Made by a program: the position numbers and the translations under genes
Notes under the pieces: generated by a model
The model's database searches: none
Told to the model about the DNA's origin: nothing
The model's input: only the letters and a program-made list of their open reading frames with translations
Shown: positions 48-36,507 of the stretch, piece by piece
How positions within the stretch are numbered: the first letter of the stretch is position 1
How the letters are laid out: every line of letters starts with the position of its first letter
NCBI GenBank assembly: GCA_019634005.1
Contig: JAHQWD010000002.1
Span: 128,747-192,746 of the forward strand
Direction of reading: 5' to 3'
Length of the DNA: 64,000 nucleotides
Origin: Candidatus Kaiserbacteria bacterium
GTDB lineage: Bacteria > Patescibacteriota > Minisyncoccia > Phycocordibacterales > UBA918

Positions 48-2300
48 ATGGCCGGTGAGCCGTCTGTTGGCACCCGAGACACTCTCGTACTCAAGATCCT
101 TGGAAGTATCATCCTTCTCATTATATTGATTCTTGCCATCTATTTTGTATCCGGACGGAAAGGAAAGAAAGCGGTGGTAACAAGTACGCTCTTCCTCGGT
201 GTACTCTTCGCGGGAGGAATGATCGGCGTTGAATCTGTAGAAGCAAAAACATGGAGTGGAAGTAAAACAGGAACTTCATGTAATTATCGTGTTGAAGGAT
301 CCATCAATAAATCAACATATGATGTTGATGATACGATTCGAGCCACTGGTTCATCTATGGTGTGGTGCACAGGAAATGGTGCGCATGGTGGCGGACTTGT
401 CTCAACAAACATTTCTACGTCTGGAGACTCTGCGACCGCAGCATCTGGGGGACAAACAGTAACCCTTAATGCACCCAACTCAAATGGAAGTTATTCGGTA
501 CGTTTTAGAGACGGTGCATACAATAAAGGAGGAAACCTCAGTTACACTGTAACAGGTGCAACACCACCAGCGCCAACTGCGAACCTCTCTGCATCACCTA
601 CATCTATTACAAAAGGGGACAATACTCGTCTGACGTGGAGTTCAACAAATGCCAATGGGTGTTCCGGAAGTGGTAGCGGATTTAGTACCGGCAATAGAAC
701 CTCTGGGGGAGATAATGCTTCACCAACATCAGATACACGTTACACCGTCACGTGTACTGGAGGGGGTGGTTCAGATAGTGACTCTGTTGATGTAAGTGTC
801 TCAGAACCAACACCAACCGCATCAATCTCTGCTTCTCCTCGAACCGTTGTTCGTGGTGCTCAGACACGACTTACCTGGAGTTCATCAAATGCAGAATACT
901 GTACCGGCGTTCGTTTTGGTACCGGTCGTCGAACGTCTGGATCTACCTACGTGACGGTTAATAGTGATACAGACTATGGAATCCGCTGTTACAACAGTGA
1001 TGGGGATCTGAAGATTGCAGTTGTGAGTGTAAGTGTCACCGATCCTGCACCATCCGTCTCACTCTCTGTCTCACCAAGCAATATTACCGAAGGAGGATCT
1101 GCAACCGTGACCTGGTCTTCAACAAATGCCTCCTCATGTTCCGGAAGTGGTAGCGGATTCTCAACAGGGAACAGAACATCAGGCTCAGATGGAGTCTCCC
1201 CAAGTTCAACAACGACATATTCTATTACCTGTACGGGGCCCGGAGGTAATGATAGTGACACTGCTCGACTGACAGTAAATGCACCAGCGCCGTCAGTGAA
1301 CCTCTCTGCGTCACCAAGCAGTATTACTCGGGGGAATAGTTCGACCCTTACTTGGAGCAGTAGCAACACTTCAACATGTGCAGGAAGTGGTAGTGGCTTC
1401 AGTACCGGTGGAAATACCTCTGGCTCAGACAGCGTTTCTCCAAGTTCAACAACGACATATTCTATTACCTGTACTGGAGAAGGGGGAAGCGACTCTGACA
1501 CACAACAGGTCACGGTAAATGCACAATCACCAAGTGCAAGTATTTCCATTTCACCAAGTAGTATTACCGAAGGAGGATCTGCAACCGTGACCTGGTCTTC
1601 AACAAATGCCTCCTCATGTTCTGGTAACGGGAGCGGATTCTCAACAGGTGGTTCTACCTCAGGAAGCGACTCTGTTTCTCCTTCGAGCACTACAACGTAT
1701 ACGGTCACCTGTACAGGTGCAGGTGGAAGCGACTCTGACAGCGATACATTGACCGTGAACACACCGGCACCAAGCGCTTCTCTTGAGGTTCGGAATGTGA
1801 CACAAGGAGGAGGTTGGACTGGAAGCAATATCATCATTCTCCCAGGTGATCAGGTATATCTACGATGGGATAGTGATGACGCCACAAGTTGTAACGGAAG
1901 CAACTTCAGCACTGGTGGAGACACTGATGGAACACAAACATCAGTTTCAGAACCATCTGCCGGGAATCAAACGGTGTTCTCAGTCTCTTGTAGCGGATCA
2001 GGTGGTTCAGATAGTGACTCACTTCGAGTCACCGCTCAGGCGACCGACCCATCTCTTTCTGCTGACAGCACCAACGTACGGGAAGGGGAAACAATCACAT
2101 TCTCGTATGACATGGAGGGAAATGACCCAAGTCAATGTACACTTACGGGACCGGGCATCTCATATCTTGCTGGTTCATTCTCTAATCAGACAGGAACAGT
2201 GGAAACAACAGTGTCTGGAGACTCTACATTTATCTTGGATTGTGACGGTGGTTCCGCAGAAGTATCCATCGATATCATTCCTATTTCCTTCGATTCCTAA
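48..2300 (+). CDS. Giant cell-surface protein, paralog A. N-terminal 2-TM hairpin followed by about 7 tandem ~90-aa Ig-like repeats (LSASPSSIT..TLTWSS.NA..C.GSGSGFSTG..TSGSD.VSPSSTTTY.ITCTG.GGSDSD) and a conserved C-terminal module ending PISFDS. Likely 5'-partial, because the frame is open to nt 3.
   Basis: 750-aa ORF. Repeat periodicity and paired Cys are visible in the translation. The C-terminal ~200 aa are highly similar to the C-terminus of ORF 6125..9160. There is no in-frame stop upstream back to the window start. Confidence 0.6.
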   Translation: MAGEPSVGTRDTLVLKILGSIILLIILILAIYFVSGRKGKKAVVTSTLFLGVLFAGGMIGVESVEAKTWSGSKTGTSCNYRVEGSINKSTYDVDDTIRATGSSMVWCTGNGAHGGGLVSTNISTSGDSATAASGGQTVTLNAPNSNGSYSVRFRDGAYNKGGNLSYTVTGATPPAPTANLSASPTSITKGDNTRLTWSSTNANGCSGSGSGFSTGNRTSGGDNASPTSDTRYTVTCTGGGGSDSDSVDVSVSEPTPTASISASPRTVVRGAQTRLTWSSSNAEYCTGVRFGTGRRTSGSTYVTVNSDTDYGIRCYNSDGDLKIAVVSVSVTDPAPSVSLSVSPSNITEGGSATVTWSSTNASSCSGSGSGFSTGNRTSGSDGVSPSSTTTYSITCTGPGGNDSDTARLTVNAPAPSVNLSASPSSITRGNSSTLTWSSSNTSTCAGSGSGFSTGGNTSGSDSVSPSSTTTYSITCTGEGGSDSDTQQVTVNAQSPSASISISPSSITEGGSATVTWSSTNASSCSGNGSGFSTGGSTSGSDSVSPSSTTTYTVTCTGAGGSDSDSDTLTVNTPAPSASLEVRNVTQGGGWTGSNIIILPGDQVYLRWDSDDATSCNGSNFSTGGDTDGTQTSVSEPSAGNQTVFSVSCSGSGGSDSDSLRVTAQATDPSLSADSTNVREGETITFSYDMEGNDPSQCTLTGPGISYLAGSFSNQTGTVETTVSGDSTFILDCDGGSAEVSIDIIPISFDS
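1071..1648 (+). repeat. Near-identical ~100-bp direct DNA repeats inside the surface-protein gene (1071-1168 vs 1551-1648). Also a 35-bp exact repeat at 1201-1235 vs 1441-1475.
   Basis: There is a 59-nt exact match at 1082-1140 and 1562-1620 (tattaccgaaggaggatctgcaaccgtgacctggtcttcaacaaatgcctcctcatgtt). Confidence 0.7.
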
Positions 2301-2317
2301 TTCCTCAAAGTGGTCAG

Positions 2318-2346
2318 AAAACAGCGCAAGTATGCGCTTTTTTTGA
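2318..2346 (+). terminator. Rho-independent terminator after surface-protein gene A
   Basis: Hairpin agcgcaagtatgcgct followed by a T7 run. Confidence 0.5.
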
Positions 2347-2367
2347 TGTTAAGAACTCCTCGGAAAC

Positions 2368-2396
2368 TTGATCTATTCGCCATAATATGGTATTAT
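2368..2396 (+). promoter_or_regulatory. Sigma70-like promoter for the RTX gene: TTGATC, 17 nt spacer, TATTAT.
   Basis: Hexamers at 2368-2373 and 2391-2396. An aaaggagg SD precedes the ATG at 2466. Confidence 0.4.
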
Positions 2397-2465
2397 TGCG
2401 ATGGGTTTAGAGTACTTCGACAGCCGCTTGCACGCGGATAATATTGATGTAAAAGAAAGGAGGCA

Positions 2466-4619
2466 GTGATGCCTACGACACTAAGTCAGTTAGATCTGGC
2501 ACCTCTTCCGGTTCCGGGCACCCCGCCGGCTGTCGTAAATGACTCGACAGCGGGCTATCAAAACGTGTTTGCCATTGCGCAAATGCTGGATGAAAACGGA
2601 AACCCCGATGGCACGATTCGTGTCATCTGGTACGATGGCGAACAAGCTAAAAGCCTGCAAAAACTCTACAATGCTGACGGCTCCGTCGCGCAAGAAGAAA
2701 CAGAGTTCCTTGCGGACTCAGTTTCCGGCGTGAGCTGGCCAAACATTGTGGCGTTGAAGGGTGGAAGTTTTATCGTCAACTGGACCGAAACCCTTCCGAA
2801 TATCACTGACGGACAAGGTAATTTCGTTGCCGAGGATCATGATATCCTCGCGCAACGATTTAACCCTGACGGCACCCCTGCATGGGAGCAGGCTGTTACG
2901 GTCAACGATACGACCTACAGCAGTCAGGTATTTTCCCACGGGACGCTTCTGCAGAACGGCACGGTCGTTATTACGGAGCATTCCTATGACGAGAAAACCG
3001 ACAGCAACGAAACAGTCCATGTCTACGGACGTGTGCTGGATCCAGTTACCGGTGAACTTGGTAACGAGTTCCTGTTTGACGAGGGCATCGGTGAGGGCGG
3101 TCGTTTCGTTGAGCCCTATGTCCACCCGCTTGCGGACGGTGGTTTCATCGTCGCAGCAAAAGGGTATGTCTATGACGAAGGCGAGGGTGAGGCACTCTTT
3201 GTGCGCGCTTACAACGCTGACGGCACCTCTCGGGGTGCGGCGGTTGCCATCGACGACGGCACGTCGTTTGATGGCGATTTCTTGCAGTGGGCGACACTGA
3301 AAAGTGGCCTGATTGTTGCTGCATGGCGCAGTGACGACGGCACCACCTTCTCGTACCGCCTACTCCAAGCAGACGGTGTAACTCCGGGAAGTGATGTGAT
3401 CACCTACCCAACCGTTGAATGGGCCGGTGCAGGTCAGCCGAGCGTCTCGGCTCTTGCAGATGGTGGCTTCATCATCAGTCTGCGAGGATTCACCCATCTG
3501 CTGGACACTACGGCAGACGTGTTCGTCCAGCGGTTTGATGCTGTTGGCAATACACTGGGGGACCTCGTGCAGGTCAACGACACTCCCATTGAGGGGAACT
3601 TCGTGTATCCGGTGGCGTTTGCGGACGGTAACTTTGCCATCTTCTACAGCGCTGGTAATGGTGATGTCTTTGGGAACCAAGAGACGGATATATACAACCG
3701 TTTCTTTGTCTCTCCAGACAACCTGATCCAAGGGTCAGACGATGCAGAACTGCATCGTGGTACTCCTGGGAGGGACCAGGTCAATGCTCTCGGCGGTAAC
3801 GATACCGTCTGGGCTGGATCTGGCGACCAGGGTGCTGATACGCTTCATGGCGGCGAAGGGAACGACATCCTCGGCGGCGGTGCTGGCGATGATGTGATCC
3901 AAGGCGGTGCTGGCGATGATGTGCTCTTTGGCGGTGTCGGCGACGATTCCCTCTATGGGGGTGCTGTCAATGCCGGGGGAGTCCTTGCTGGAAACGGCTC
4001 AAACGAGATTTGGGCTGGATCCGGTGATGACTTGATCAACGGCGAAAATGGTAATGATCGTCTTGGTGGCGGTCACGGCAATGACACCATCAATGGCCTC
4101 GGCGGCGATGATCTCATCTACTCCGGTTCTACGGGGAATGAGGTTATCAATGCTGGCAATGGCAACGACGTGGCCTTTGGTGGTACCGGTGATGACATGG
4201 TCAACGGCGGTAATGGTCGTGACGAACTCTATGGCGGGTCTGGTACCGACACCGTCATTGGTGGTTTCGGTCATGACACGCTGTATGGTGGTGCTGGTGA
4301 TGATCTCATCAAAGCTGGTCCAGGAAACGATGTTTTGAACGGAAGCCTGGACGGTGATGACACCCTTGTTGGCGGCGATGGGGACGATACGTTTGTCTTT
4401 AATCTCGCCAATACGGGGGAGGATCGTATCACCGACTTTGATGTCGATGGAGACGCTCTCCGCTTTGTCGGTGAGGGGCTCCAGTCGGTAAGTGATGTGG
4501 TCAATGCTGCGACAGAAGTCGATGGCGGCGTTCTCATCACGACACCGGGCGGTGAGGTTTTCATCGATGGACTCTCACTCACCGACCTTTCCGACACATC
4601 AATGGAGTTTGGTCTTTAG
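2466..4619 (+). CDS. Secreted RTX-type protein. The N-terminal region is beta-propeller-like. The C-terminal half carries many hemolysin-type Ca-binding nonapeptide repeats (GGAGDDVIQGGAGDDVLFGG...).
   Basis: 717-aa ORF. There are more than 15 GG.G.D.. repeats in residues ~440-640. A strong SD is present. Confidence 0.7.
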   Translation: MMPTTLSQLDLAPLPVPGTPPAVVNDSTAGYQNVFAIAQMLDENGNPDGTIRVIWYDGEQAKSLQKLYNADGSVAQEETEFLADSVSGVSWPNIVALKGGSFIVNWTETLPNITDGQGNFVAEDHDILAQRFNPDGTPAWEQAVTVNDTTYSSQVFSHGTLLQNGTVVITEHSYDEKTDSNETVHVYGRVLDPVTGELGNEFLFDEGIGEGGRFVEPYVHPLADGGFIVAAKGYVYDEGEGEALFVRAYNADGTSRGAAVAIDDGTSFDGDFLQWATLKSGLIVAAWRSDDGTTFSYRLLQADGVTPGSDVITYPTVEWAGAGQPSVSALADGGFIISLRGFTHLLDTTADVFVQRFDAVGNTLGDLVQVNDTPIEGNFVYPVAFADGNFAIFYSAGNGDVFGNQETDIYNRFFVSPDNLIQGSDDAELHRGTPGRDQVNALGGNDTVWAGSGDQGADTLHGGEGNDILGGGAGDDVIQGGAGDDVLFGGVGDDSLYGGAVNAGGVLAGNGSNEIWAGSGDDLINGENGNDRLGGGHGNDTINGLGGDDLIYSGSTGNEVINAGNGNDVAFGGTGDDMVNGGNGRDELYGGSGTDTVIGGFGHDTLYGGAGDDLIKAGPGNDVLNGSLDGDDTLVGGDGDDTFVFNLANTGEDRITDFDVDGDALRFVGEGLQSVSDVVNAATEVDGGVLITTPGGEVFIDGLSLTDLSDTSMEFGL

Positions 4620-10067: not shown

Positions 10068-10544
10068 TCAAAAACCAAAAAATTCCAGTATCTGATGAGA
10101 CAGCGGTTCTTCAAGTTCTTCTTCAGGAAGACGAAGAGAAATAACGTCCTCAATCTCGTCTATATATTCTTCTGGAATAGGGAGGATAAGGAGTGGAGCA
10201 AACGTCTTTCGGTTTCGAAGAAGTAATTGCGGACCGTGTCGGTTCTCTACATCAAGTGCGTATCCTGCAAGTGTTGCGTATGGATAGAGATCTCCGTCGA
10301 TACGGACACCGCGAGCTGTTATTGCAAAGGGAATAGTGTGTGGATCGCGAAGCGCATGAGTAACAAGCGCCACTGCACCGAAGATGATAACAAGGCCAAA
10401 TAGAATGTTTCCAAAAATAAAAGCCGCCGCCGCGCTCGCGATGGTAAGGAGTCCGACAACCCAAAACCAATCGGTGGTCTTTTCAATATGAGCGTGCTCT
10501 GGCGCTTCCCATGTAATGGATTGGATAACCTCTTCTGTTGCCAT
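10068..10544 (-). CDS. Hypothetical membrane protein, last gene of the zur-znu operon
   Basis: 158-aa ORF with two TM helices. It is co-directional with and tightly spaced to znuB. Confidence 0.45.
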   Translation of the reverse strand: MATEEVIQSITWEAPEHAHIEKTTDWFWVVGLLTIASAAAAFIFGNILFGLVIIFGAVALVTHALRDPHTIPFAITARGVRIDGDLYPYATLAGYALDVENRHGPQLLLRNRKTFAPLLILPIPEEYIDEIEDVISLRLPEEELEEPLSHQILEFFGF

Positions 10545-10568: not shown

Positions 10569-11366
10569 TTATCGTCGTGCAAAGAGGGTCGTTAACAAAA
10601 AGAGGAAGAGTGCAACAAGGACGATAACTCCTCCAGTTGCGAGATCGAAATAGAATGAAAGAAGCATACCTGAGGTAACAGAAAAGAGGGATACAAACTC
10701 TGCGTAGAGTAGTGTGCGTAAAAAACTCTGCTTTAGTTGGAGTGCGGCAAGTACAGGTATGACAATGAGTGCGGAGATAAGAAGGATCCCCACTACAGGA
10801 ATAGCAAGAGAGATAGTGACTGCCGCAAGGATAATGAGGACGGTATTTAGTAGTCCAACAGGGATGCCAGAGACACGAGCATATTCCTCGTCAAACGCTA
10901 TCGCGATTAGTTCTTTGTAGAAAATGAGTACGAGCACCGCTACGACAACGGCGAGAACGGCAATGACGTAGATGTCAGTTTGGGTCACGGTTACAATACT
11001 CCCAAAGAGATAGTTAAAAAGGTTTGAGGTAAACCCTTTTCCAAGAGAAAGCAGTACGGTCGCGATGGCAAGACTCCCTGAGAGAAAGAGTGCAAGTGCA
11101 GATTCTCCGTAGAGACGTTTTGTTGCACGAAGTCGTTCAAGGCCAAGTGACGACAATACCGTGACACCAAGTGCGGTGAAGAAAGGATTCATGTTTGCAA
11201 GAAGACCCACAGCGATACCCGCAAGAGAGGCGTGTGCGAGCGTGTCGGCAATAAGGGAATACCGACGAAGTACGAGAAAGATGCCGATAAGGGGTGCAAT
11301 GAAACCGACAATGAGTCCTGCCTCAAATCCACGAACGATAAAACTATAGGTGAAGATCTCAAACAT
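10569..11366 (-). CDS. znuB: Metal (Zn/Mn) ABC transporter permease, ABC-3 family
   Basis: 265 aa, 8 TM. It shares the N-terminal ABC-3 permease pattern and sits in an operon with the ATPase and SBP. Confidence 0.8.
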   Translation of the reverse strand: MFEIFTYSFIVRGFEAGLIVGFIAPLIGIFLVLRRYSLIADTLAHASLAGIAVGLLANMNPFFTALGVTVLSSLGLERLRATKRLYGESALALFLSGSLAIATVLLSLGKGFTSNLFNYLFGSIVTVTQTDIYVIAVLAVVVAVLVLIFYKELIAIAFDEEYARVSGIPVGLLNTVLIILAAVTISLAIPVVGILLISALIVIPVLAALQLKQSFLRTLLYAEFVSLFSVTSGMLLSFYFDLATGGVIVLVALFLFLLTTLFARR

Positions 11367-11369
11367 AGA

Positions 11370-12089
11370 TTAATGGTGATGTGCTTGTATGCCGTATTCT
11401 TCTGGCGTTTCATGAAAGAAGACGGTGCAATCGACGCAAGCAATATGCATCGCTTCATGGGCAACAGACTCAAGATCATGAGTAACCAACACCACAGTCA
11501 ATTCCAACTCCTCGTTTAGTTTCTTGATTAGTGCATAGAACTCTTCTCGAATCTCCTGTTCTACTCCCACGGTTGGCTCATCGAGGAAGAGTACTTCTGG
11601 ACGACCAGCAAGGGCTCGGGCGATAAAGACACGTTGTTGCTGTCCACCAGAAAGCGATCCAATTTGCCGATCACGATACGCTTCCATATCAACAGCAGCA
11701 AGCGCATCGGTGACTGCGGCCATATCTCGCTCATCGGTTGTGCGAAAGAGTCCACGCCCATGTCGCCCCATCAGCACAACTTCTTCGACTGTAGCAGGGA
11801 AGGAGGGGTCGAACGAAGTTGCTTTTTGTGGCACATACCCAATACGGGCATGTTCTGTAAACTTCCGAATATCTTGTCCAAAAAGACGAACGGTACCGTT
11901 CGTTGGTTTCATCAAGCCTAAAATAATTTTCAGGAGTGTTGTTTTTCCAGAACCATTGCGTCCTACGATAGCAAGGTAGTCTCCTTTGTGGATTGAGAAA
12001 GAGACATCATGAAGCACCTCATATTCTCCGTAGGAGAATGAGATATTTTCAAGTTCAATAATATTTTCCGAGTGATCAACTGCAGGCAT
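11370..12089 (-). CDS. znuC: Metal ABC transporter ATP-binding protein
   Basis: Walker A GRNGSGKTT, signature LSGGQQQRV, Walker B LFLDEP. The ATG at 12089 lies 2 nt after the znuA stop. The track ORF begins at an upstream GTG at 12104. Confidence 0.8.
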   Translation of the reverse strand: MPAVDHSENIIELENISFSYGEYEVLHDVSFSIHKGDYLAIVGRNGSGKTTLLKIILGLMKPTNGTVRLFGQDIRKFTEHARIGYVPQKATSFDPSFPATVEEVVLMGRHGRGLFRTTDERDMAAVTDALAAVDMEAYRDRQIGSLSGGQQQRVFIARALAGRPEVLFLDEPTVGVEQEIREEFYALIKKLNEELELTVVLVTHDLESVAHEAMHIACVDCTVFFHETPEEYGIQAHHH

Positions 12090-12091
12090 GC

Positions 12092-13096
12092 CTATAGTGT
12101 ACACCCAAGGGCCTCAGTGAGACTATCGAGGTTTGCGTACATCACTGTAAAATATGTTTCACCATGATCCTGCTCTTCCGCAGTGAGTCCTCCGAGTGGA
12201 TTGAGCACCAATGTCTCTGCACCGATTTCTTGTGCAAGTGTTTCTGCGAGACGAGGGGATACCAGTGTCTCAAAGAATACGTGAGTTACCCCATGCTCTT
12301 CTGCAAATGTACTGATCTCTGCAAGGTCTGCAGCCGATGGTTCCGCTTCTGGCGAGAGACCGCTAATAGGAAGTTGTTCGAGTTCGTATGCTTCTGCTAG
12401 ATACCAGAAGGCGTCATGTGAGGTTACGATAGTCCGTGAGGTACATACAGAGAGTGCATTGCGGTAGTCTGCATCAAGCGTCTGCAGTTTTGCGATAAGT
12501 GCACTGGCATTTTCTCGATAGATAGACTCATGCGCAGGATCAGCCAGTACGAACCCTTTCACAATTTCTTCCACCATGAGCATTGCTTTCTCTGGAGAAA
12601 GCCAGACGTGCGGATCAAGTCCTTCGTGGTGATGTTCTTCCTCCTCATGCTCGTCTTCATGATCGTGATCCTCATGTTCATCATGATCTTCTTCGTGCTC
12701 GTGCATTTCGTCTTCGTGATGTTCCTCCTCCTCAAATTCCCGAGTCATGAAGTCTTCACCTGCAAGTACGATGACAATCTCGTCAGCAGAAAGATTTTCG
12801 AGTACATCATGTTCCCATGGCTCAAAGCCACCGCCGTTAAGAATCAATACATCGCTCTTCTCCATAGTAATGATGTCCCGTGGAGTAGGTTCATATTCAT
12901 GTGGTTCTGCTCCCGCAGGAACAACATTGTGTATATCTGCATATTCGCCACCAATCTCAGAGGCAAAGAAATAGAGGGGATAAAAACTAGTGACCACAGA
13001 AAGTTCGTCGGTATGTTCGGTAGGAGTATCCATATACGACGCTACCCCAAAACCGATAACAAGCACGACAACAAGAAATATAAGTATGTTTTTCAT
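12092..13096 (-). CDS. znuA: Metal ABC transporter substrate-binding protein with a His/Glu/Asp-rich flexible loop (ZnuA-like)
   Basis: 334 aa. The loop HHEDEMHEHEEDHDEHEDHDHEDEHEEEEHHHEG is typical of ZnuA. An N-terminal signal is present. Confidence 0.8.
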   Translation of the reverse strand: MKNILIFLVVVLVIGFGVASYMDTPTEHTDELSVVTSFYPLYFFASEIGGEYADIHNVVPAGAEPHEYEPTPRDIITMEKSDVLILNGGGFEPWEHDVLENLSADEIVIVLAGEDFMTREFEEEEHHEDEMHEHEEDHDEHEDHDHEDEHEEEEHHHEGLDPHVWLSPEKAMLMVEEIVKGFVLADPAHESIYRENASALIAKLQTLDADYRNALSVCTSRTIVTSHDAFWYLAEAYELEQLPISGLSPEAEPSAADLAEISTFAEEHGVTHVFFETLVSPRLAETLAQEIGAETLVLNPLGGLTAEEQDHGETYFTVMYANLDSLTEALGCTL

Positions 13097-13099
13097 AGA

Positions 13100-13507
13100 T
13101 TAACTACATGATTTACAAAGCCCGAAGAACTCCAGGGAGTGCCCAGTAATGGATGCGAACCCTCGTGCCTCTTTGAGTGCATCGCGAGAGAGTAACTCCT
13201 CGTGACATGAGGATACATCTGCAATTTTATGGCACGAGGTGCAGACAACATGATGATGTCCGTGACCATCAGGGGCAAGTTCATAGGAGATACTTCCCGT
13301 TCCAAGATTCACTTCCTTCACGATTCCTGCTCCTTTTGCTGCATCAATGATGCGGTATACCGTCACAGGATCAACAACGGCACCCAGTTTTTCTGCAATC
13401 TCTGAGATAGAGATAGGCACACGTTGTTGCTCGAGAAATGAAAGGACTGCAATACGTGACTTTGTCGCGCGAAGTCCAGAGTCTCTAAGAAGGGAAACAA
13501 TATCCAT
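13100..13507 (-). CDS. zur: Fur-family metalloregulator, likely Zur
   Basis: DNA-binding helix region, HHHVVCTSCH and C-terminal CKSC metal sites. Start taken at the ATG 13507 (MDIVSLLRDSGLRATK). A start at 13621 would place the operator palindrome inside the CDS. Confidence 0.7.
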   Translation of the reverse strand: MDIVSLLRDSGLRATKSRIAVLSFLEQQRVPISISEIAEKLGAVVDPVTVYRIIDAAKGAGIVKEVNLGTGSISYELAPDGHGHHHVVCTSCHKIADVSSCHEELLSRDALKEARGFASITGHSLEFFGLCKSCS

Positions 13508-13515
13508 AATCGGAG

Positions 13516-13552
13516 TGTATAGTACCTGCAAAAAAATTGCAAGTACTATACA
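13516..13552. promoter_or_regulatory. 16-5-16 inverted repeat (TGTATAGTACCTGCAA aaaaa TTGCAAGTACTATACA, 1 mismatch). Candidate Zur/Fur-type operator in the divergent promoter region.
   Basis: Seen directly. It is immediately upstream of the zur start and within the 120-bp gap to the divergent thioredoxin-like gene. Confidence 0.5.
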
Positions 13553-13629
13553 CAGGGTAATGTTAAGTCTGCTTGACATGTCCGAAGTGAACGCTATCAT
13601 AGAGTCATTAGTGATAAGCACATATATCT

Positions 13630-14217
13630 ATGAAAGGTTTTGGAACAGTGGGGTGGATTATTCTTGTGGCAGTTATCCTTGGAGGAGGATACGCACTTAC
13701 TATGAACTCTAGTGAAGAGAAGATGGAGTCCATGGAGCATGATTCTATGATGGAGGAGGACGCTATGATGTCTGAAGAAGACAGCATGATGATGGAGAAA
13801 GAAGACGCAATGATGGAAGATGGTTCCATGATGATGGCAAAGTACGAAGGAGCGGTGCTTGCGGGAGGAGAGTCACCACTTCTTGATTTTGTGCAGTCAG
13901 ACTATGAGAAAGCACTCGCAAGTGACAAATTGGTGGTGCTGTATTTCTACGCAACATGGTGTCCATTTTGTAGGGAAGAGGCGGGAAATGCACTCGAGCC
14001 AGCATTCAGCGAACTTGAAGGGGATGATGTCATTGGCTTCCGCGTGAACTATAATGATGGAGATACGGATGAGTACGAAAAAGCACTGGCACGAGAGCAT
14101 GGGATTGCATACCAGCACACAAAAGTCTTTATTAAAAATGGTGAGCGTATCCTCAAAGCACCCGATACCTGGGATAAAGAGCGGTATCACACTGAGATAA
14201 CAAACGCACTCAAGTAA
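13630..14217 (+). CDS. Membrane-anchored thioredoxin-like protein (WCPFC) with an N-terminal Met/Glu/Asp-rich low-complexity segment
   Basis: TM helix, (M/E/D)-rich ~45 aa, then a thioredoxin fold motif LVVLYFYATWCPFCREE. Confidence 0.6.
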   Translation: MKGFGTVGWIILVAVILGGGYALTMNSSEEKMESMEHDSMMEEDAMMSEEDSMMMEKEDAMMEDGSMMMAKYEGAVLAGGESPLLDFVQSDYEKALASDKLVVLYFYATWCPFCREEAGNALEPAFSELEGDDVIGFRVNYNDGDTDEYEKALAREHGIAYQHTKVFIKNGERILKAPDTWDKERYHTEITNALK

Positions 14218-14219
14218 CT

Positions 14220-14924
14220 ATGACCACAAGTCTTATCATTGGAGCATTCATCGGCGGGCTGGTTTCCTTCCTTGCCCCCTGCGTGCTCCCACTCATTCCA
14301 GGATTCCTTGCGTACCTTGCGGGGAGCAACACTGACGCAACGGGGAGGGGGCAGCGAGAGATATTCATCAACAGTGTCTTCTTTGTCCTTGGGTTCTCTA
14401 TAGTCTTTGCACTCCTTGGGGTACTTCTCAACACCATCCTTGAGAGTATTGCATACGATGTGCAGATATGGCTGTCTCGTATTGGGGGTGCACTCATTAT
14501 CTTCTTTGGGCTCTACCTCGTGGGACTAATCCGCATTCCATTCCTCGAGCGAGAGCATAAGATGAGCGTTAAGACAAAGTTCTCTTCACGGTATCTTACG
14601 TCACTTCTCTTTGGATTTGCGTTTGCAGCAGGCTGGACACCGTGTGTCGGTCCTGCGCTTGGAGTGATTCTTGGGCTTGCAGCAACGCAGCCAGGAAGTG
14701 CATTTCTCCTTCTCTTCACCTATTCCCTTGGACTCGGTATCCCATTCCTTATTGTTGGTGCGTTTACGGGTAAGGCGACAGCGTTTATTACTCGTCACGC
14801 ACGTGCACTCAAAATCGTGAACATCATATTTGGCGCAATTCTCCTTGCACTCGGTGTCCTCATCTTTACAAACAAACTCGCACTTATTGCGAACTTCGAG
14901 TTCCTTAATAACTTCCTTATCTAA
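14220..14924 (+). CDS. ccdA: Cytochrome c-type biogenesis / thiol-disulfide transporter CcdA (DsbD family)
   Basis: 6-TM protein with the two conserved Cys motifs LAPCVLPLIPGF and GWTPCVGPALG. Confidence 0.75.
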   Translation: MTTSLIIGAFIGGLVSFLAPCVLPLIPGFLAYLAGSNTDATGRGQREIFINSVFFVLGFSIVFALLGVLLNTILESIAYDVQIWLSRIGGALIIFFGLYLVGLIRIPFLEREHKMSVKTKFSSRYLTSLLFGFAFAAGWTPCVGPALGVILGLAATQPGSAFLLLFTYSLGLGIPFLIVGAFTGKATAFITRHARALKIVNIIFGAILLALGVLIFTNKLALIANFEFLNNFLI

Positions 14925-14926
14925 CT

Positions 14927-16006
14927 ATGCGACCGTATATTCTTGTAGCAGTACTGATTCTGATTGGTGGAGCAATCTGGTTTCTTGAAAGCCAGAGTTC
15001 TGACAGAACATCACTCGCGGATGTCGTGTCACTGACACCACGGACGCTCGATTCTGAAGAAAAGGCGAAGATATATCCAACAGCAAAGGAGATCACCTCT
15101 CCTGATGGCTTCATCAATACCGATGAAATCGCTATTGGAGACCTGATTGGAAAGAAGGTTATTCTTGTAGATTTCTGGACGTACAGTTGTATCAACTGTC
15201 AGCGGACATTCCCGTATCTCAATAGTTGGTATGAGAAGTACAAAGATCAAGGACTTGAAATTGTGGGTATTCACACACCAGAGTTTGAGTTTGAAAAGAA
15301 GTACGAGAATGTGCTTGCGGCAACTGAGCGGTTCGACATTAATTTCCCCGTGGTGCTTGATAACGACTTTTCTACCTGGACTGCATACCAGAATCGGTAC
15401 TGGCCTCGGAAGTACCTGATCGACATAGATGGGTACATCGTCTATGACCATATCGGGGAGGGGGCATATGAAGAAACTGAGAAGAAGATTCAGGAATTAT
15501 TGAAGGAGCGCATGGAAGTGCTCGGAGAGGAAGGAGAAATTGTTGGAGATCTCACCGAAGAAGTCACCAAAGCATCTCGTCCAGACAGTCCAGAAATATA
15601 TTTCGGTGCGTGGCGGAATGAGCATTTCGGAAGTGGACCCCAAAATGCAGTTGGGTCTCAGTCTTTCTATGCACCGGAGGAAGTGAAGTTAAATACACTC
15701 TACTTTGATGGTGTCTGGAGTATTACGGAAGAATATTCGGAAAATGTCACTGCTGGTGGGAAGATTATCTTCCGCTTTAAGGCGAGTGAAGTGAACTTCG
15801 TTGCGGGTGCAGAGACTCCTGTGCGTGCGAAGGTGCTCGTTGATGGTGTTCCTGCAAATGGGCGCGACGTAGATGGGGAGGGGTATATCACGGTGGATGA
15901 GGAACAACTCTACAATCTCGTGTCTTCCGAGGAGAAAGAAGAACATACGATAGAAATTATTCCAGAGAGTCCAGGATTACAGGCGTTTACGTTTACCTTT
16001 GGGTAG
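14927..16006 (+). CDS. TlpA/ResA-like thiol-disulfide oxidoreductase, membrane-anchored, with an extra C-terminal domain
   Basis: FWTYSCINCQRTFPYL aligns to the ResA WASWCEPCKKEFPYM motif. An N-terminal TM is present. Confidence 0.6.
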   Translation: MRPYILVAVLILIGGAIWFLESQSSDRTSLADVVSLTPRTLDSEEKAKIYPTAKEITSPDGFINTDEIAIGDLIGKKVILVDFWTYSCINCQRTFPYLNSWYEKYKDQGLEIVGIHTPEFEFEKKYENVLAATERFDINFPVVLDNDFSTWTAYQNRYWPRKYLIDIDGYIVYDHIGEGAYEETEKKIQELLKERMEVLGEEGEIVGDLTEEVTKASRPDSPEIYFGAWRNEHFGSGPQNAVGSQSFYAPEEVKLNTLYFDGVWSITEEYSENVTAGGKIIFRFKASEVNFVAGAETPVRAKVLVDGVPANGRDVDGEGYITVDEEQLYNLVSSEEKEEHTIEIIPESPGLQAFTFTFG

Positions 16007-16048: not shown

Positions 16049-16375
16049 ATGAAAAAATATTTAGCAGTCTTCGTTGCACCACCTGAGGCGTATGACAAGA
16101 TGAAGTCAATGTCTCCCGAAGATTCTAAAGCGGAGATGGATCAATGGAATGTGTGGATGGAAGCACATAAGGAACATGTTGTTGATCCAGGAGCACCAGT
16201 TGGATCTGCAAAGCGAGTCAATAGTGAAGGTGTTACTGACATGCGGAACACTATCGGTGGCTACATGATTGTTCAAGCAGAGACGCATGAGGAAGCGGCA
16301 CGTATCTTTGAGGATAGTCCAAGTCATGGAATGGAGGACGGAGCGATTGATGTGATGGAGATTGTAGAGATGTAA
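16049..16375 (+). CDS. Conserved hypothetical ~108-aa protein, paralog of 26028..26354
   Basis: About 50% identity to the minus-strand ORF 26028..26354 over full length. Confidence 0.45.
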   Translation: MKKYLAVFVAPPEAYDKMKSMSPEDSKAEMDQWNVWMEAHKEHVVDPGAPVGSAKRVNSEGVTDMRNTIGGYMIVQAETHEEAARIFEDSPSHGMEDGAIDVMEIVEM

Positions 16376-16385
16376 AACAAAAAAC

Positions 16386-16410
16386 GCCCAAGTAAGGGCG
16401 TTTTTTGTTT
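16386..16410. terminator. Bidirectional rho-independent terminator
   Basis: cgcccaagtaagggcg flanked by an A-run and a T-run. It serves the + gene and the convergent minus-strand tRNA. Confidence 0.6.
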
Positions 16411-16413
16411 TTG

Positions 16414-16521: not shown

Positions 16522-16977
16522 TCATTTTTTTAAATAGTGTTCTTTCGCATGGCAGTTTGGGCATAAGAGTTCTAAATTGGAAAGAGAATTGTGGTCTCGG
16601 TTCCTATCTATGTGGTGGACTATCAGTATCTCTAAAAGGTCATAATTACAGCGTTCGCATTGTGCTCCTCGTTCTTTTACGATTCGAGCCTTCAAAGAAC
16701 GTTGGGTCTTTACGTTATCTTTAAGGCGTCCCGTTTTATATGAGATTCCAGCACGGTTTTTATTTGCGCACCGTCTACTGCACGTTTTCTTGTTTGCACT
16801 TGCGAGTATTGGTTTCTTACAGATGAGACAGGGGTGTTCTTTTCTCTGAGACTTTCCATAACAAGTCTGGCTGCAAAAAAGACCACGTGTACTTCTTTTT
16901 ATTTCTGCTGGACGACGATAGATCTCTTTTCCACAAACGGTGCACGTAGTATTAGGTTTTCTTCTATGCTCAGACAC
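16522..16977 (-). CDS. HNH endonuclease with zinc-ribbon motifs
   Basis: Several CxxC pairs, plus an HNH core ILIVHHIDRNRDHN…LLCPNCH. Confidence 0.65.
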   Translation of the reverse strand: MSEHRRKPNTTCTVCGKEIYRRPAEIKRSTRGLFCSQTCYGKSQRKEHPCLICKKPILASANKKTCSRRCANKNRAGISYKTGRLKDNVKTQRSLKARIVKERGAQCERCNYDLLEILIVHHIDRNRDHNSLSNLELLCPNCHAKEHYLKK

Positions 16978-22326: not shown

Positions 22327-23190
22327 ATGGACGACATGGAAACATACAAGGACATTGTTGTTATATATCACGCGGAGTGTCGCGATGGCTTCGGCGCAGC
22401 GTATGCTGCGTGGAAGAAATTTGGTGATACTGCGTCATATATTCCCCGAAGGACACAAACTGAGGTGCCCGAAGGGCTTATAGATAAAGAGATATACATC
22501 GTCGACTACAGTTACGACAAAGAAACATTACGGAAACTTGTTGATGAGAATACGTCTGTTGTTGTGATAGATCATCATGAAAGTGCAAGAAGTGCGGTAG
22601 AGTCTTTCCCGCAGAATGTCTTTGATAATGATCACTCAGGAGCGGTACTTACATGGCAGTATTTTCATCCAGATACTCCAGTACCGGAGATGCTTCTTTA
22701 CGTTGAAGATCATGACCTCTGGCGGTTTGCACTTCCAGAACACCGAGAGTTCAACATCGCACTAGGAGAATACGAACGAACGTTCACTGTTTGGGACGAG
22801 CTTAATGAGTCTCTTAAAGAAGAGAATGCTCGCATTAATTTTATTGCCAAGGGGTCACTTCTCGCAAAGTTTGAAGACAAGTTGGTAGCGAGAATTATGG
22901 AGTATAAGGAGCGTGTACTTTTTGAAGGACACGAGGTGTGGGCGATTAATGCATCACGTACCTATAGATCAATTCTCGGGAACCAGCTTGCAGAACTTAA
23001 TGAGTCAGAAGGAGGGACTGCACTCGGTATTGTGTACTACCGATATGGTGGAAGAGTACACATTTCTCTCCGAAGTATTGGAGATGTCGATGTTGCATCG
23101 ATTGCGGGAAAATATGGCGGAGGAGGACACAAAAATGCAGCGAGTATTAAAGTAGATTCGTTTGAAGAACTACCGTTTACATTTGTATAA
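22327..23190 (+). CDS. DHH/DHHA1 phosphoesterase (NrnA-like nanoRNase / pAp phosphatase)
   Basis: DHH motif VVIDHHE and DHHA1 GGGHKNAAS. Start taken at the ATG 22327 inside ORF 22189..23190. Confidence 0.7.
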   Translation: MDDMETYKDIVVIYHAECRDGFGAAYAAWKKFGDTASYIPRRTQTEVPEGLIDKEIYIVDYSYDKETLRKLVDENTSVVVIDHHESARSAVESFPQNVFDNDHSGAVLTWQYFHPDTPVPEMLLYVEDHDLWRFALPEHREFNIALGEYERTFTVWDELNESLKEENARINFIAKGSLLAKFEDKLVARIMEYKERVLFEGHEVWAINASRTYRSILGNQLAELNESEGGTALGIVYYRYGGRVHISLRSIGDVDVASIAGKYGGGGHKNAASIKVDSFEELPFTFV

Positions 23191-23193
23191 CAA

Positions 23194-23219
23194 AACCCGC
23201 CGTATGGCGGGTTTTGTTT
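23194..23219 (+). terminator. Rho-independent terminator
   Basis: aacccgccgtatggcgggtt followed by ttgtttt. Confidence 0.6.
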
Positions 23220-24402: not shown

Positions 24403-24984
24403 ATGAACACAGTATTAGACGCAGTACAAGTTTCACCAGTAAACATGGAGGAGCGAAAGAATCTCGGAATTCGTCCGGGAGACACTGTACGTATTCACCA
24501 GAAGATTCAGGACAAGGATAAAACACGTATCCAGGTCTTTGAAGGTGTGGTACTTGCACGGAAGCATGGCTCAGAGGCAGGAGCAACCTTCACTGTCCGT
24601 AAGGTGGTAGATGGTATTGGAGTTGAGAAAATCTTCCCACTCTACTCTCCGCTTATCGACAAAATTGAGATCGTGAAGCGATCTAAGGTTCGCCGCGCGA
24701 AACTTTACTACATCCGTGAGAAGGTGGCACGTGAGATCAAGCGACAGATGCGTCGTATGCGTCTCATGGATCTTGCAACCAAGTCTGAGGCAGAGGCAGC
24801 AGCAGAGAAGGAAGCAGAGGCTGCAGAGCTAGCTCGTAAGGCTGAGGAAGCAGAAGCAAAGAAAGCCGAGGAAGCAGCAAAGGCTGCTGAGGAGGCAAAG
24901 CAGGAAGAGACCACGGAAGAAGCTCCAGTAGAGGAGACAAAAGAAGAAGAGACTCCGAAGGAGGAAGAGAAGAAAGAGGAGTAA
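24403..24984 (+). CDS. rplS: 50S ribosomal protein L19 with a ~75-aa Ala/Glu/Lys-rich C-terminal extension
   Basis: The first ~115 aa match L19 (IQVFEGVVLARKHG…). Then comes a low-complexity AEAAAEKEAEAA…KEEE tail. Confidence 0.85.
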   Translation: MNTVLDAVQVSPVNMEERKNLGIRPGDTVRIHQKIQDKDKTRIQVFEGVVLARKHGSEAGATFTVRKVVDGIGVEKIFPLYSPLIDKIEIVKRSKVRRAKLYYIREKVAREIKRQMRRMRLMDLATKSEAEAAAEKEAEAAELARKAEEAEAKKAEEAAKAAEEAKQEETTEEAPVEETKEEETPKEEEKKEE

Positions 24985-24991
24985 ACAAAAA

Positions 24992-25018
24992 ACCACCCAC
25001 GAGGTGGTTTTTTGTTTA
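24992..25018 (+). terminator. Rho-independent terminator after rplS
   Basis: ccacccacgaggtgg followed by ttttttg. Confidence 0.6.
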
Positions 25019-25967: not shown

Positions 25968-25984
25968 CAGCGACATAGAAAAAA

Positions 25985-26011
25985 CCTCTTCCCTCGTGGA
26001 AGAGGTTTTTT
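25985..26011. terminator. Bidirectional rho-independent terminator
   Basis: cctcttccctcgtggaagagg flanked by A- and T-runs. It lies between the tRNA-His gene and a convergent gene. Confidence 0.6.
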
Positions 26012-26027
26012 CATATCAGAACAAGAT

Positions 26028-33255: not shown

Positions 33256-33269
33256 CTTCATTTTCTAAA

Positions 33270-33298
33270 AAACTGCTCCTTTTACGGAGCAGTTTTTT
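33270..33298 (+). terminator. Rho-independent terminator
   Basis: ctgctccttttacggagcag followed by ttttttag. Confidence 0.65.
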
Positions 33299-33315
33299 AG
33301 TGTACGCTTTCTAAT

Positions 33316-36462: not shown

Positions 36463-36476
36463 CCATAACCTCTCAC

Positions 36477-36507
36477 AAAACCCCGCATATGCGGGGTTTT
36501 GTGTTTT
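36477..36507 (+). terminator. Rho-independent terminator directly after rplK
   Basis: Perfect palindrome ccccgcatatgcgggg followed by ttttgtgttttt. Confidence 0.65.

Follow-up and report, generated by a model that had tools for sequence, protein, structure and literature searches.

Which protein, if any, recognises the long inverted repeat between two divergent operons of a Candidatus Kaiserbacteria genome, and which of the two operons would it control? The repeat lies in a stretch of 64,000 nucleotides (assembly GCA_019634005.1, contig JAHQWD010000002.1, positions 128,747 to 192,746 of the forward strand), referred to here as the window and numbered from its first letter. On one side of the repeat, on the minus strand, a zur-like gene for a Fur-family regulator of 135 aa (13100..13507; PF01475, E=6.6e-17) is followed by znuA-, znuC- and znuB-like genes; on the other side, thioredoxin-like, ccdA and resA-like genes run in the opposite direction. 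A first, sequence-only reading had placed zur at the head of a zur-znuA-znuC-znuB operon, divergent from the thioredoxin-like/ccdA/resA-like operon, and this gene context was confirmed by domain matches. The same reading had proposed a candidate Zur box, giving autoregulation together with control of the uptake operon. Conservation of the core of the repeat and the position of the zur start codon support this proposal, in which binding and metal specificity are predictions. We consider it likely that the palindrome holds the operator of the Fur-family, Zur-like repressor encoded directly downstream.

The full inverted repeat spans 13515..13553 and, as a palindrome, has no strand. On the plus strand it reads GTGTATAGTACCTGCAA aaaaa TTGCAAGTACTATACAC; a repeat search found the two 17-nt arms (13515-13531 and 13537-13553) to be 94% complementary, with one mismatch, around a run of five A (AAAAA). 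It had been described as a 16-5-16 repeat with one mismatch, 9 nt upstream of zur. The repeat, its single mismatch and its place upstream of zur stand, with arms one base longer each and a zur-side end 8 nt from the zur ATG (13505-13507, minus strand). The distance to the divergent operon, given as about 80 nt, was measured as 76 nt from the arm end at 13553 to the ATG at 13630 (77 nt from 13552). First-order Markov simulations of the window, 40 in all, gave no repeat with 17-nt arms, no more than one mismatch and a loop of 0-10 nt. Every other repeat of like size in the actual window is laid out as a terminator, with A-run, G+C stem and T-run; the repeat at 13515-13553 is the sole long palindrome of another type, located between divergently transcribed genes. 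It is genuine and not a product of chance.

The part of the repeat that is invariant in close relatives is a 15-bp, 7-1-7-like core, TGCAA-N5-TTGCA (13527-13541). Gene order on both sides is kept in the contigs of the three closest Zur homologues (L001-L003, 76% identity; L004-L006, 62%; L007, 62%). Alignment of the four distinct intergenic sequences (62-76% Zur identity) showed TTGCA-TTTTTTTGCA-GTA to be invariant. Indeed, the core TTGCAR-TTTTT-TTGCARGTA is unchanged in these four Kaiserbacteria-like sequences while neighbouring unconstrained positions have diverged, and in the same alignment the adjacent TTGACA/TATCAT promoter has a 16-nt spacer whose letters are close to random. The outer arms vary more: the distal arm of L001 shows three changes, one nucleotide is inserted in L007, and L004 has a 9-nt insertion and lacks the outer symmetry. 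Immediately before the regulator gene, homologues at 45-51% identity (L008, L009 and L010) retain a 6-5-6 core whose spacer letters are different. This core is TTGCAAagtatTTGCAT in L008 and TTGCAAataatTTGCAA in L009, where a perfect 29-bp palindrome, AAGTACTTGCAAAT-A-ATTTGCAAGTACTT, is found and a second box lies at the start of the divergent gene (box 2904-2920; gene 1629-2903, minus strand). In L010 the zur gene is preceded by ATGCAAataatTTGCAA, and a divergent znuA by the box-like ATGCAAgttatTCGCAT.

Metagenome contigs, scanned with a profile, yielded 80 further homologues at 32-52% identity (L090-L169), 72 of which have at least 100 nt of upstream sequence. Searching for TGCAA-N5-TTGCA with at most one mismatch in 10, we found the core within 150 nt upstream of the regulator gene in 46 of these 72 homologues, 33 of them with an exact match. 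The density of the core was 5.19/kb upstream of the gene against 0.093/kb in the remaining 300 kb, a 56-fold enrichment. Thus, where it had been asked whether the motif might be unconserved upstream of zur/znu in relatives, it proved conserved both in close relatives and in these 46 distant loci. The metagenomic sites yield the operator consensus wTGCAAATAATTTGCAw; the consensus of 56-59 sites, TGCAAAT-A-ATTTGCA, has inverted 7-1-7 geometry and an AT-rich centre. Site symmetry is 0.82-1.0 at +/-3 to +/-7 from the dyad, stays strong to +/-10-11 and falls to background beyond +/-12. For the family as a whole the operator thus measures about 21-23 bp, a palindrome built around a 7-1-7-like core. 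The statement that the size of the palindrome is typical of Fur-family sites has to be corrected in this respect: the full 39 bp is not typical, and the family-wide operator covers only about 15-23 bp.

A symmetrised position weight matrix (PWM) was built from 59 independent metagenomic sites, with the window and its close relatives excluded. It gave 17.7 bits to the 23-bp stretch 13523..13545 (TAC CTGCAA AAAAA TTGCAA GTA, no strand), compared with 4.2 bits for the next best site in the 64 kb and a maximum of 12.4 bits in 20 simulated windows. As judged by this matrix, 13523-13545 is a recognisable member of the family and the sole such site in the window.

The sequence-only reading had also named a case that would place the repeat inside the coding sequence, namely a zur start at an upstream in-frame ATG at 13621. 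The codon at that position is in fact GTG. In 16 homologues (37-76% identity) the N-terminus falls on ATG 13507 or a few residues away, apart from a few evidently over-extended calls, and the 38-codon extension to GTG 13621 was found in none of these 16 aligned sequences. Since the homologue N-termini align at 13507, and since the extension has no counterpart and would cross the conserved promoter of the divergent operon, the start of zur is, on this alignment, ATG 13507. The longer open reading frame (ORF) was ruled out.

This start codon stands close to a predicted promoter. Read on the zur strand, TTGCAA (13542-13537) is followed by a 17-nt spacer, TACACT (13519-13514), CCGATT and the ATG (13507). 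The predicted -35 (13537..13542, minus strand) has the same letters as the zur-distal half-site, and the predicted -10 (13514..13519, minus strand), separated from the -35 by 17 nt and from the ATG by 6 nt, is inside the outer zur-proximal arm. The layout TTGCAA-17-TAnnnT-6/7-ATG was found in more than 20 relatives, with the second half-site within the spacer, and about 20 metagenomic loci share it with the end of the box 19-20 nt from the start codon. The hexamer at the -10 position is TACACT in L001, L009 and L091, TACGCT in L007, TACTGT in L004 and TACAGT in L089; L133 reads TTGCAA-17-TATAAT-6-ATG. A second class of promoters has TTGACA immediately before the box, which then lies entirely within the spacer (L127: TTGACA-18-TAATAT-6-ATG). 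Other assignments (TTAACA as -35, TATAGT in the left arm as -10, or TACTAT with a 12-nt spacer) were rejected, with spacings that are impossible or unconserved. Among the promoter assignments considered, TTGCAA-17-TACACT is the sole layout common to the relatives. The box overlaps the core promoter of zur, the promoter itself being predicted.

Only 5 of the 46 long ORFs of the window have a Shine-Dalgarno-like motif, and -10-like hexamers (TACAAT, TATACT, TACACT and similar) lie 6-9 nt before the ATG at many first genes. This pattern suggests that leaderless or Shine-Dalgarno-independent initiation is widespread in the Kaiserbacteria genome. Because such motifs are few and -10-like hexamers stand so close to the ATG, the zur-znuACB transcript is probably leaderless, starting at ATG 13507. 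Operon-internal genes often start right after TAACT or TAATCT.

It is an established model that Zur boxes are palindromes, often placed over the -35, and that their occupation blocks RNA polymerase (PMC6103462). In the mechanism that we infer here, from promoter hexamers and leaderless start to binding by the Fur-family protein, zinc signal and stoichiometry, a metal-loaded dimer would occupy the core TGCAA-N5-TTGCA (13527-13541) when zinc is sufficient, with contacts over about 23 bp. Two dimers might be bound, given the long arms. The distal half-site TTGCAA would serve as the -35, the proximal half-site would lie in the 17-nt spacer and the proximal outer arm would bear the -10 TACACT. With the promoter elements within the box, the bound repressor would exclude RNA polymerase, and the leaderless zur-znuA-znuC-znuB transcript would be off. 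When zinc is scarce, the apo-protein would leave, and the regulator and the ZnuABC importer would be made together, in a circuit of negative autoregulation.

Several observations weigh against this assignment. Of the 12 positions in the predicted -35 and -10, only 8 agree with the sigma-70 consensus, and a promoter scan did not list the pair. The site in the window is asymmetric at its T-run centre and, at 17.7 bits, falls short of the median of 26 bits reached by the sites from which the matrix was built. The operator model does not account for the 8 outermost nucleotides of either arm. There is no second site within the 64-kb window, so that a regulon is not demonstrable for this genome. As for the regulator, the Fur structures 5nbc and 2w57 (E=1e-12) score nearly as well as the closest solved structure, M. 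tuberculosis FurB/Zur (2o03, 4e-13), and PerR structures almost as well. No NCBIfam Zur or Fur equivalog reaches its cut-off, the best match being PerR with 59.6 bits against 180. Finally, positions Asp62 and Cys76 of M. tuberculosis Zur, which we take to be its sensory ligands, align to Lys64 and Ala78 here; unlike in that protein, an N2OS sensory site is not recognisable at the same positions. The sensory site of Zur is of the N2OS type, and the positions of its ligands differ even among known Zurs (PMC6103462).

The metal to which the regulator answers was therefore considered from both the regulator and the transporter. A Candidatus Kaiserbacteria protein in NCBI matches the regulator with 100% identity. 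The regulator has the PF01475 fold with a Cys4 structural site (C89/C92 and C131/C134, invariant in 25 homologues), a mostly conserved fifth cysteine, Cys101, and a conserved Fur-like set of Glu76, His84 and His86. S. coelicolor Zur (3mwm) was matched at 1e-11, and the best NCBIfam matches, below cut-off, were PerR and Fur models. Comparison of the regulator with PDB and NCBIfam did not separate Zur, Fur and PerR. Since its sequence does not type it, the name 'Zur' rests on the regulon and not on the protein sequence.

The transporter is more telling. The znuA-like substrate-binding protein (12092..13096, minus strand; PF01297, E=7.6e-86) has the zinc proteins YcdH (2o1e, 6.9e-67) and AdcA (7jj8, 1e-59) as best solved relatives, with manganese proteins at only about 1e-25 to 1e-31. 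It contains a long His/Asp/Glu-rich loop, EEEEHHEDEMHEHEEDHDEHEDHDHEDEHEEEEHHHE, and its histidines in EPHEYEP, DPHVW and TSHDAF, which we take to be the metal-ligand motifs, align with those of YcdH and AdcA. Manganese proteins of the PF01297 family have Glu at the third of these motifs. For this protein, for the znuC-like ATP-binding cassette (ABC) ATPase that overlaps the end of znuA (11370..12104, minus strand; PF00005) and for the znuB-like ABC-3 permease (10569..11366, minus strand; PF00950, E=1e-66), zinc models rank first in NCBIfam, below cut-off: AztC/AdcA/ZnuA, AztA and AztB, respectively. For the permease, AztB and ZnuB are the best matches, both below cut-off. Moreover, of the homologue loci that span 5 kb or more, 23 out of 32 carry ZnuABC or ZIP genes. 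By its closest structures, its loop and its motif histidines, the substrate-binding protein appears specific for zinc.

Because the regulator cannot be typed, the most serious rival is that the palindrome is indeed the operator of the adjacent Fur-family protein, which would sense another metal (manganese or iron, as Mur and Fur do), the ABC transporter importing that metal. The near-equal scores of Fur structures and Zur 2o03 would fit, as would the conservation of the Glu76/His84/His86 set and the absence of the presumed actinobacterial Asp/Cys ligands; PF01297 and ZIP families also hold manganese and iron transporters. Against this stand the gap between the zinc and manganese relatives of the substrate-binding protein, a His-rich loop characteristic of zinc-specific ZnuA, His rather than Glu in TSHDAF, the first rank of zinc models for all three transporter proteins and the ZnuABC or ZIP genes at 23 of the 32 larger loci. 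The transporter evidence favours zinc, and we regard a different metal as unlikely. That another transcription factor, unrelated to the Fur-family gene, binds the repeat, or that it is a promoter feature without any regulator, could be argued from the resemblance of TTGCAA to a -35 hexamer and from the presence of only one site in the window. Yet the motif tracks the Fur-family gene through 46 of 72 loci with quite different neighbours, znuA and ZIP promoters elsewhere in those loci have the box as well, and 7-1-7 symmetry with an AT-rich centre is the Fur-family layout (PMC6103462). The second promoter class, with the whole box in the spacer, shows that the box is not merely a -35. A different factor or no factor is thus very unlikely. 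Still harder to credit is that the repeat acts as an RNA hairpin (a structure of the 5' untranslated region, an attenuator or a terminator), even though it would form a 17-bp RNA stem of -25.9 kcal/mol (z = -9.2 against shuffles). No T-run follows the stem on either strand, a terminator scan was negative, and Rfam gave no family at threshold, only sub-threshold miRNA-hairpin noise. Pairing is kept by invariance, the covariation of 0.118 being that of shuffled controls (mean 0.116, 399 of 500 shuffles as high). L004 and distant relatives keep the TGCAA half-sites but not the outer stem, and with the predicted start sites the repeat would be untranscribed in both mRNAs. Membership of a terminator or structured-RNA class was rejected.

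The remaining rival extends the operator instead of replacing it: the palindrome would be bidirectional, acting also on the thioredoxin-like gene (13630-14217), the DsbD_TM/CcdA gene (14220-14924) and the gene for a ResA-like protein with a Thioredoxin_10 domain (14927-16006), all on the plus strand, either through a mirrored promoter or through Zur acting upstream of the -35. Such co-regulation of the thiol-redox operon had been suggested by the sequence-only reading. The divergent arrangement is kept in L001, L004 and L007; this synteny includes the unrelated flanking genes ruvX and S20, and therefore reflects relatedness and not linkage. The -10-like TACAC has its mirror image, GTGTA, in the left outer arm of the window, L001 and L007, which gives a mirrored upstream promoter candidate, CTGCAA-17-TACACA, on the plus strand; its -10, however, lacks the final T and is absent in L004. 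The 9-nt insertion of L004 is close to one helical turn, and activation by Zur from a box upstream of the -35 is documented (PMC6103462). Nevertheless, the operon has its own promoter, TTGACA-16-TATCAT (13573-13600; TTGACA 13573-13578, TATCAT 13595-13600), with 11 of 12 consensus matches and with hexamers and 16-nt spacing invariant in all four close sequences. If transcription from it begins about 7 nt past the -10, the centre of the box is near position -73. The -35 is overlapped by a second palindrome, ATGTTAAG-tctg-CTTGACAT (13560-13579; 8-4-8, one mismatch), which is invariant in L001, L004 and L007, occurs among 169 loci only at the thiol-redox promoter, and is the better candidate for control. 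It is probably the operator of a separate regulator of this operon. Furthermore, distant loci swap the divergent neighbour while the box stays with zur: the neighbour is a 424-aa unknown in L009, znuA in L010 and a HlyD-like gene in L089. With a conserved promoter and a palindrome of its own, the thiol-redox operon is unlikely to be controlled by the box as well, and the suggested co-regulation is not upheld. The thioredoxin-like protein itself carries a WCPFC motif and a signal-anchor-like N-terminus; its residues from about 28 to 70 form a Met/Glu/Asp-rich low-complexity stretch, MESMEHDSMMEEDAMMSEEDSMMMEKEDAMMEDGSMMM, reminiscent of Met-rich metal-binding segments.

Returning to the Zur-like operator, the outer arms of the repeat need a separate account. 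Positions beyond +/-11 are symmetric only in the window and nearer relatives, GyGTAyAGTAC standing on both sides in the window, L001, L007 and L009; the outer symmetry is absent in L004 and in the wider family. In L004 the TGTG of the distal outer arm keeps a fixed distance from the neighbouring promoter block, not from the box. The outer arms are clade-specific, and the proximal one coincides with the -10-like hexamer. A second dimer might bind to them, by analogy with the E. coli complex of two dimers, or they may result from promoter elements that flank the box.

Further copies of the half-site had been suggested as a way to reveal the regulon. In the window, searches with the 16-nt half-site and with TTGCAA-N5-TTGCAA returned only the site itself, below the chance expectation of 3.9, and neither pattern nor PWM scans found another copy. 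In 185,579 species genomes, TTGCARWWWWWTTGCARGTAC gave 79 matches, nearly all attributable to chance and many apparently in coding sequence, including a recurring chance match in Paenibacillus and other Bacillales. The relevant matches were only L089 (Kaiserbacteria, adjoining zur) and L015 (Halanaerobiales, upstream of znuACB-zur); this pattern is too strict to reveal regulon members. Across several genomes, the box was found upstream of zinc-acquisition genes: zur-znuACB in the window, L001, L004, L007, L008 and L009, ZIP genes (PF02535) preceding zur in L106, L111 and L157, and znuA of the znuACB-zur operon in L164. In L015 (3890-3975; metagenome-assembled genome contig JANWJZ010000030.1), whose Zur is 25% identical to that of the window, two boxes bracket the znuACB-zur promoter TTGACT-17-TAATAT, one abutting the -35 and the other just after the -10. 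Because two copies occur in this Firmicutes genome, the TGCAA-N5-TTGCA motif is not confined to the candidate phyla radiation (CPR).

Boxes were also seen before genes other than zur and znu. They precede the L009 gene mentioned above (1629-2903, minus strand), whose 424-aa product has no Pfam match, and genes of L147 (boxes at 2629, 3495 and 3518; genes 2686-2901 and 3536-4507) and L115 (box at 3049; gene 3073-4038). The genes so preceded in L009, L147 and L115 include those for a 323-aa protein without Pfam match, a 71-aa protein and, at a one-mismatch site, a CbiM-type transporter; they are possible further regulon members. YibE_F membrane proteins (PF07907, function unknown) adjoin the zur-like gene in 22 of the 80 metagenomic loci; similar genes are found in L010 (3465-4625, directly downstream of zur) and L008 (2981-3526). 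They are candidate metal-homeostasis genes.

The proposed operator can be compared with known systems. Fur-family boxes have a 7-1-7 layout and are bound by the metal-loaded, active repressor (PMC6103462); the PerR box, for instance, is TTATAATNATTATAA (PMC12748984). The box described here resembles those of B. subtilis Zur, Fur and PerR in its inverted heptamers, single central base, AT-rich centre and specific outer bases, as well as in a site that overlaps the core promoter of a zinc-uptake ABC operon and a repressor active when metal-loaded. It differs in its half-site, TGCAAAT here and TCGTAAT for B. subtilis Zur, and in that the regulator gene heads the transporter operon. The copy in the window further departs from the B. 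subtilis boxes by its T-run centre and by 8 extra symmetric bases per arm. Like the E. coli Zur-znuABC operator (4mtd), the box is a pseudo-palindrome of about 23 bp in a divergent intergenic region before znu genes. E. coli Zur can occupy one box cooperatively as two dimers (PMC6103462), which is a precedent for an operator longer than the footprint of one dimer. Unlike here, the E. coli consensus is TRWNAYRWTATAWYRTNWCA (PMC6103462), and E. coli zur is unlinked to znu.

The regulator shares with M. tuberculosis FurB/Zur (2o03) and S. coelicolor Zur (3mwm) the Cys4 site (C89, C92, C131 and C134 here) and an HHH run before the first CxxC. Its residues His85, Glu104 and His123 are the counterparts of what we take to be the third-site ligands of 2o03. 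S. coelicolor Zur activates zitB from a box upstream of the -35 (PMC6103462). The box likewise lies upstream of the promoter of the thioredoxin operon without overlapping it; unlike zitB, which encodes a zinc exporter, the target here would be a thiol-redox operon. Finally, the alpha-proteobacterial Mur box (Mur-responsive sequence, MRS) is a 19-bp palindrome bound by a Fur-family protein upstream of the PF01297-type importer sitABCD, and is sometimes linked to the regulator gene (PMC1698941). Unlike the box in the window, it answers to manganese and controls manganese transporters. Its half-sites may be TGCAA-like, a lead that would fit the rival reading in which the regulator senses another metal.

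A box before an autoregulated zur-znuACB operon is textbook biology, and the result for the window itself, a metal-uptake operon probably repressed by its own regulator, is ordinary; what is new is the lineage and the specific consensus. We found no paper joining 'Zur box' with Patescibacteria, and a literature search on Zur, znuA and Parcubacteria gave none on that lineage among the matches listed. Hardly any work has addressed the regulatory sites of CPR/Patescibacteria, since pure cultures of them are lacking. What the analysis supplies is a working consensus, wTGCAAATAATTTGCAw, for the operator of a Fur-family regulator that occurs across the group, and a clear case of a predicted leaderless promoter with a putative repressor site inside it. 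It also provides zinc-homeostasis candidates among the box-bearing or regulator-adjoining genes, with YibE_F proteins and several without Pfam match. A bolder view is that CPR bacteria have a distinct Zur-like branch, with a sensory site lacking the canonical Asp/Cys and the operator TAAwTGCAA-N5-TTGCAwTTA in leaderless promoters, and that in Kaiserbacteria the 39-bp palindrome binds two dimers and also sets the level of the extracytoplasmic thiol-redox operon. We hold this to be quite improbable as a whole. If true, such a branch with its enlarged operator would couple zinc status to envelope disulfide and metal-thiolate chemistry.

Some minor features of the window may be recorded. Downstream of znuB, a gene for a 158-aa protein (10068-10544, minus strand) with only a weak DUF5673 match occupies the same place in L001, L004 and L007. 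A TACAAT hexamer 7 nt in front of its ATG suggests that this gene may be transcribed on its own. A 151-aa Cys-rich ORF (16522-16977, minus strand), located between a YCII-like gene and ruvX and absent there in L001 and L004, has the C-terminal HNH-like motif HHIDRNRDHN...LCPNCHAKEH and resembles a free-standing HNH endonuclease gene. Finally, perfect palindromes with an A-run, a G+C core and a T-run were found at 58152-58195, 36474-36503, 16374-16411, 24982-25018, 25978-26012, 33265-33300 and 23189-23218; their layout suggests bidirectional intrinsic terminators.

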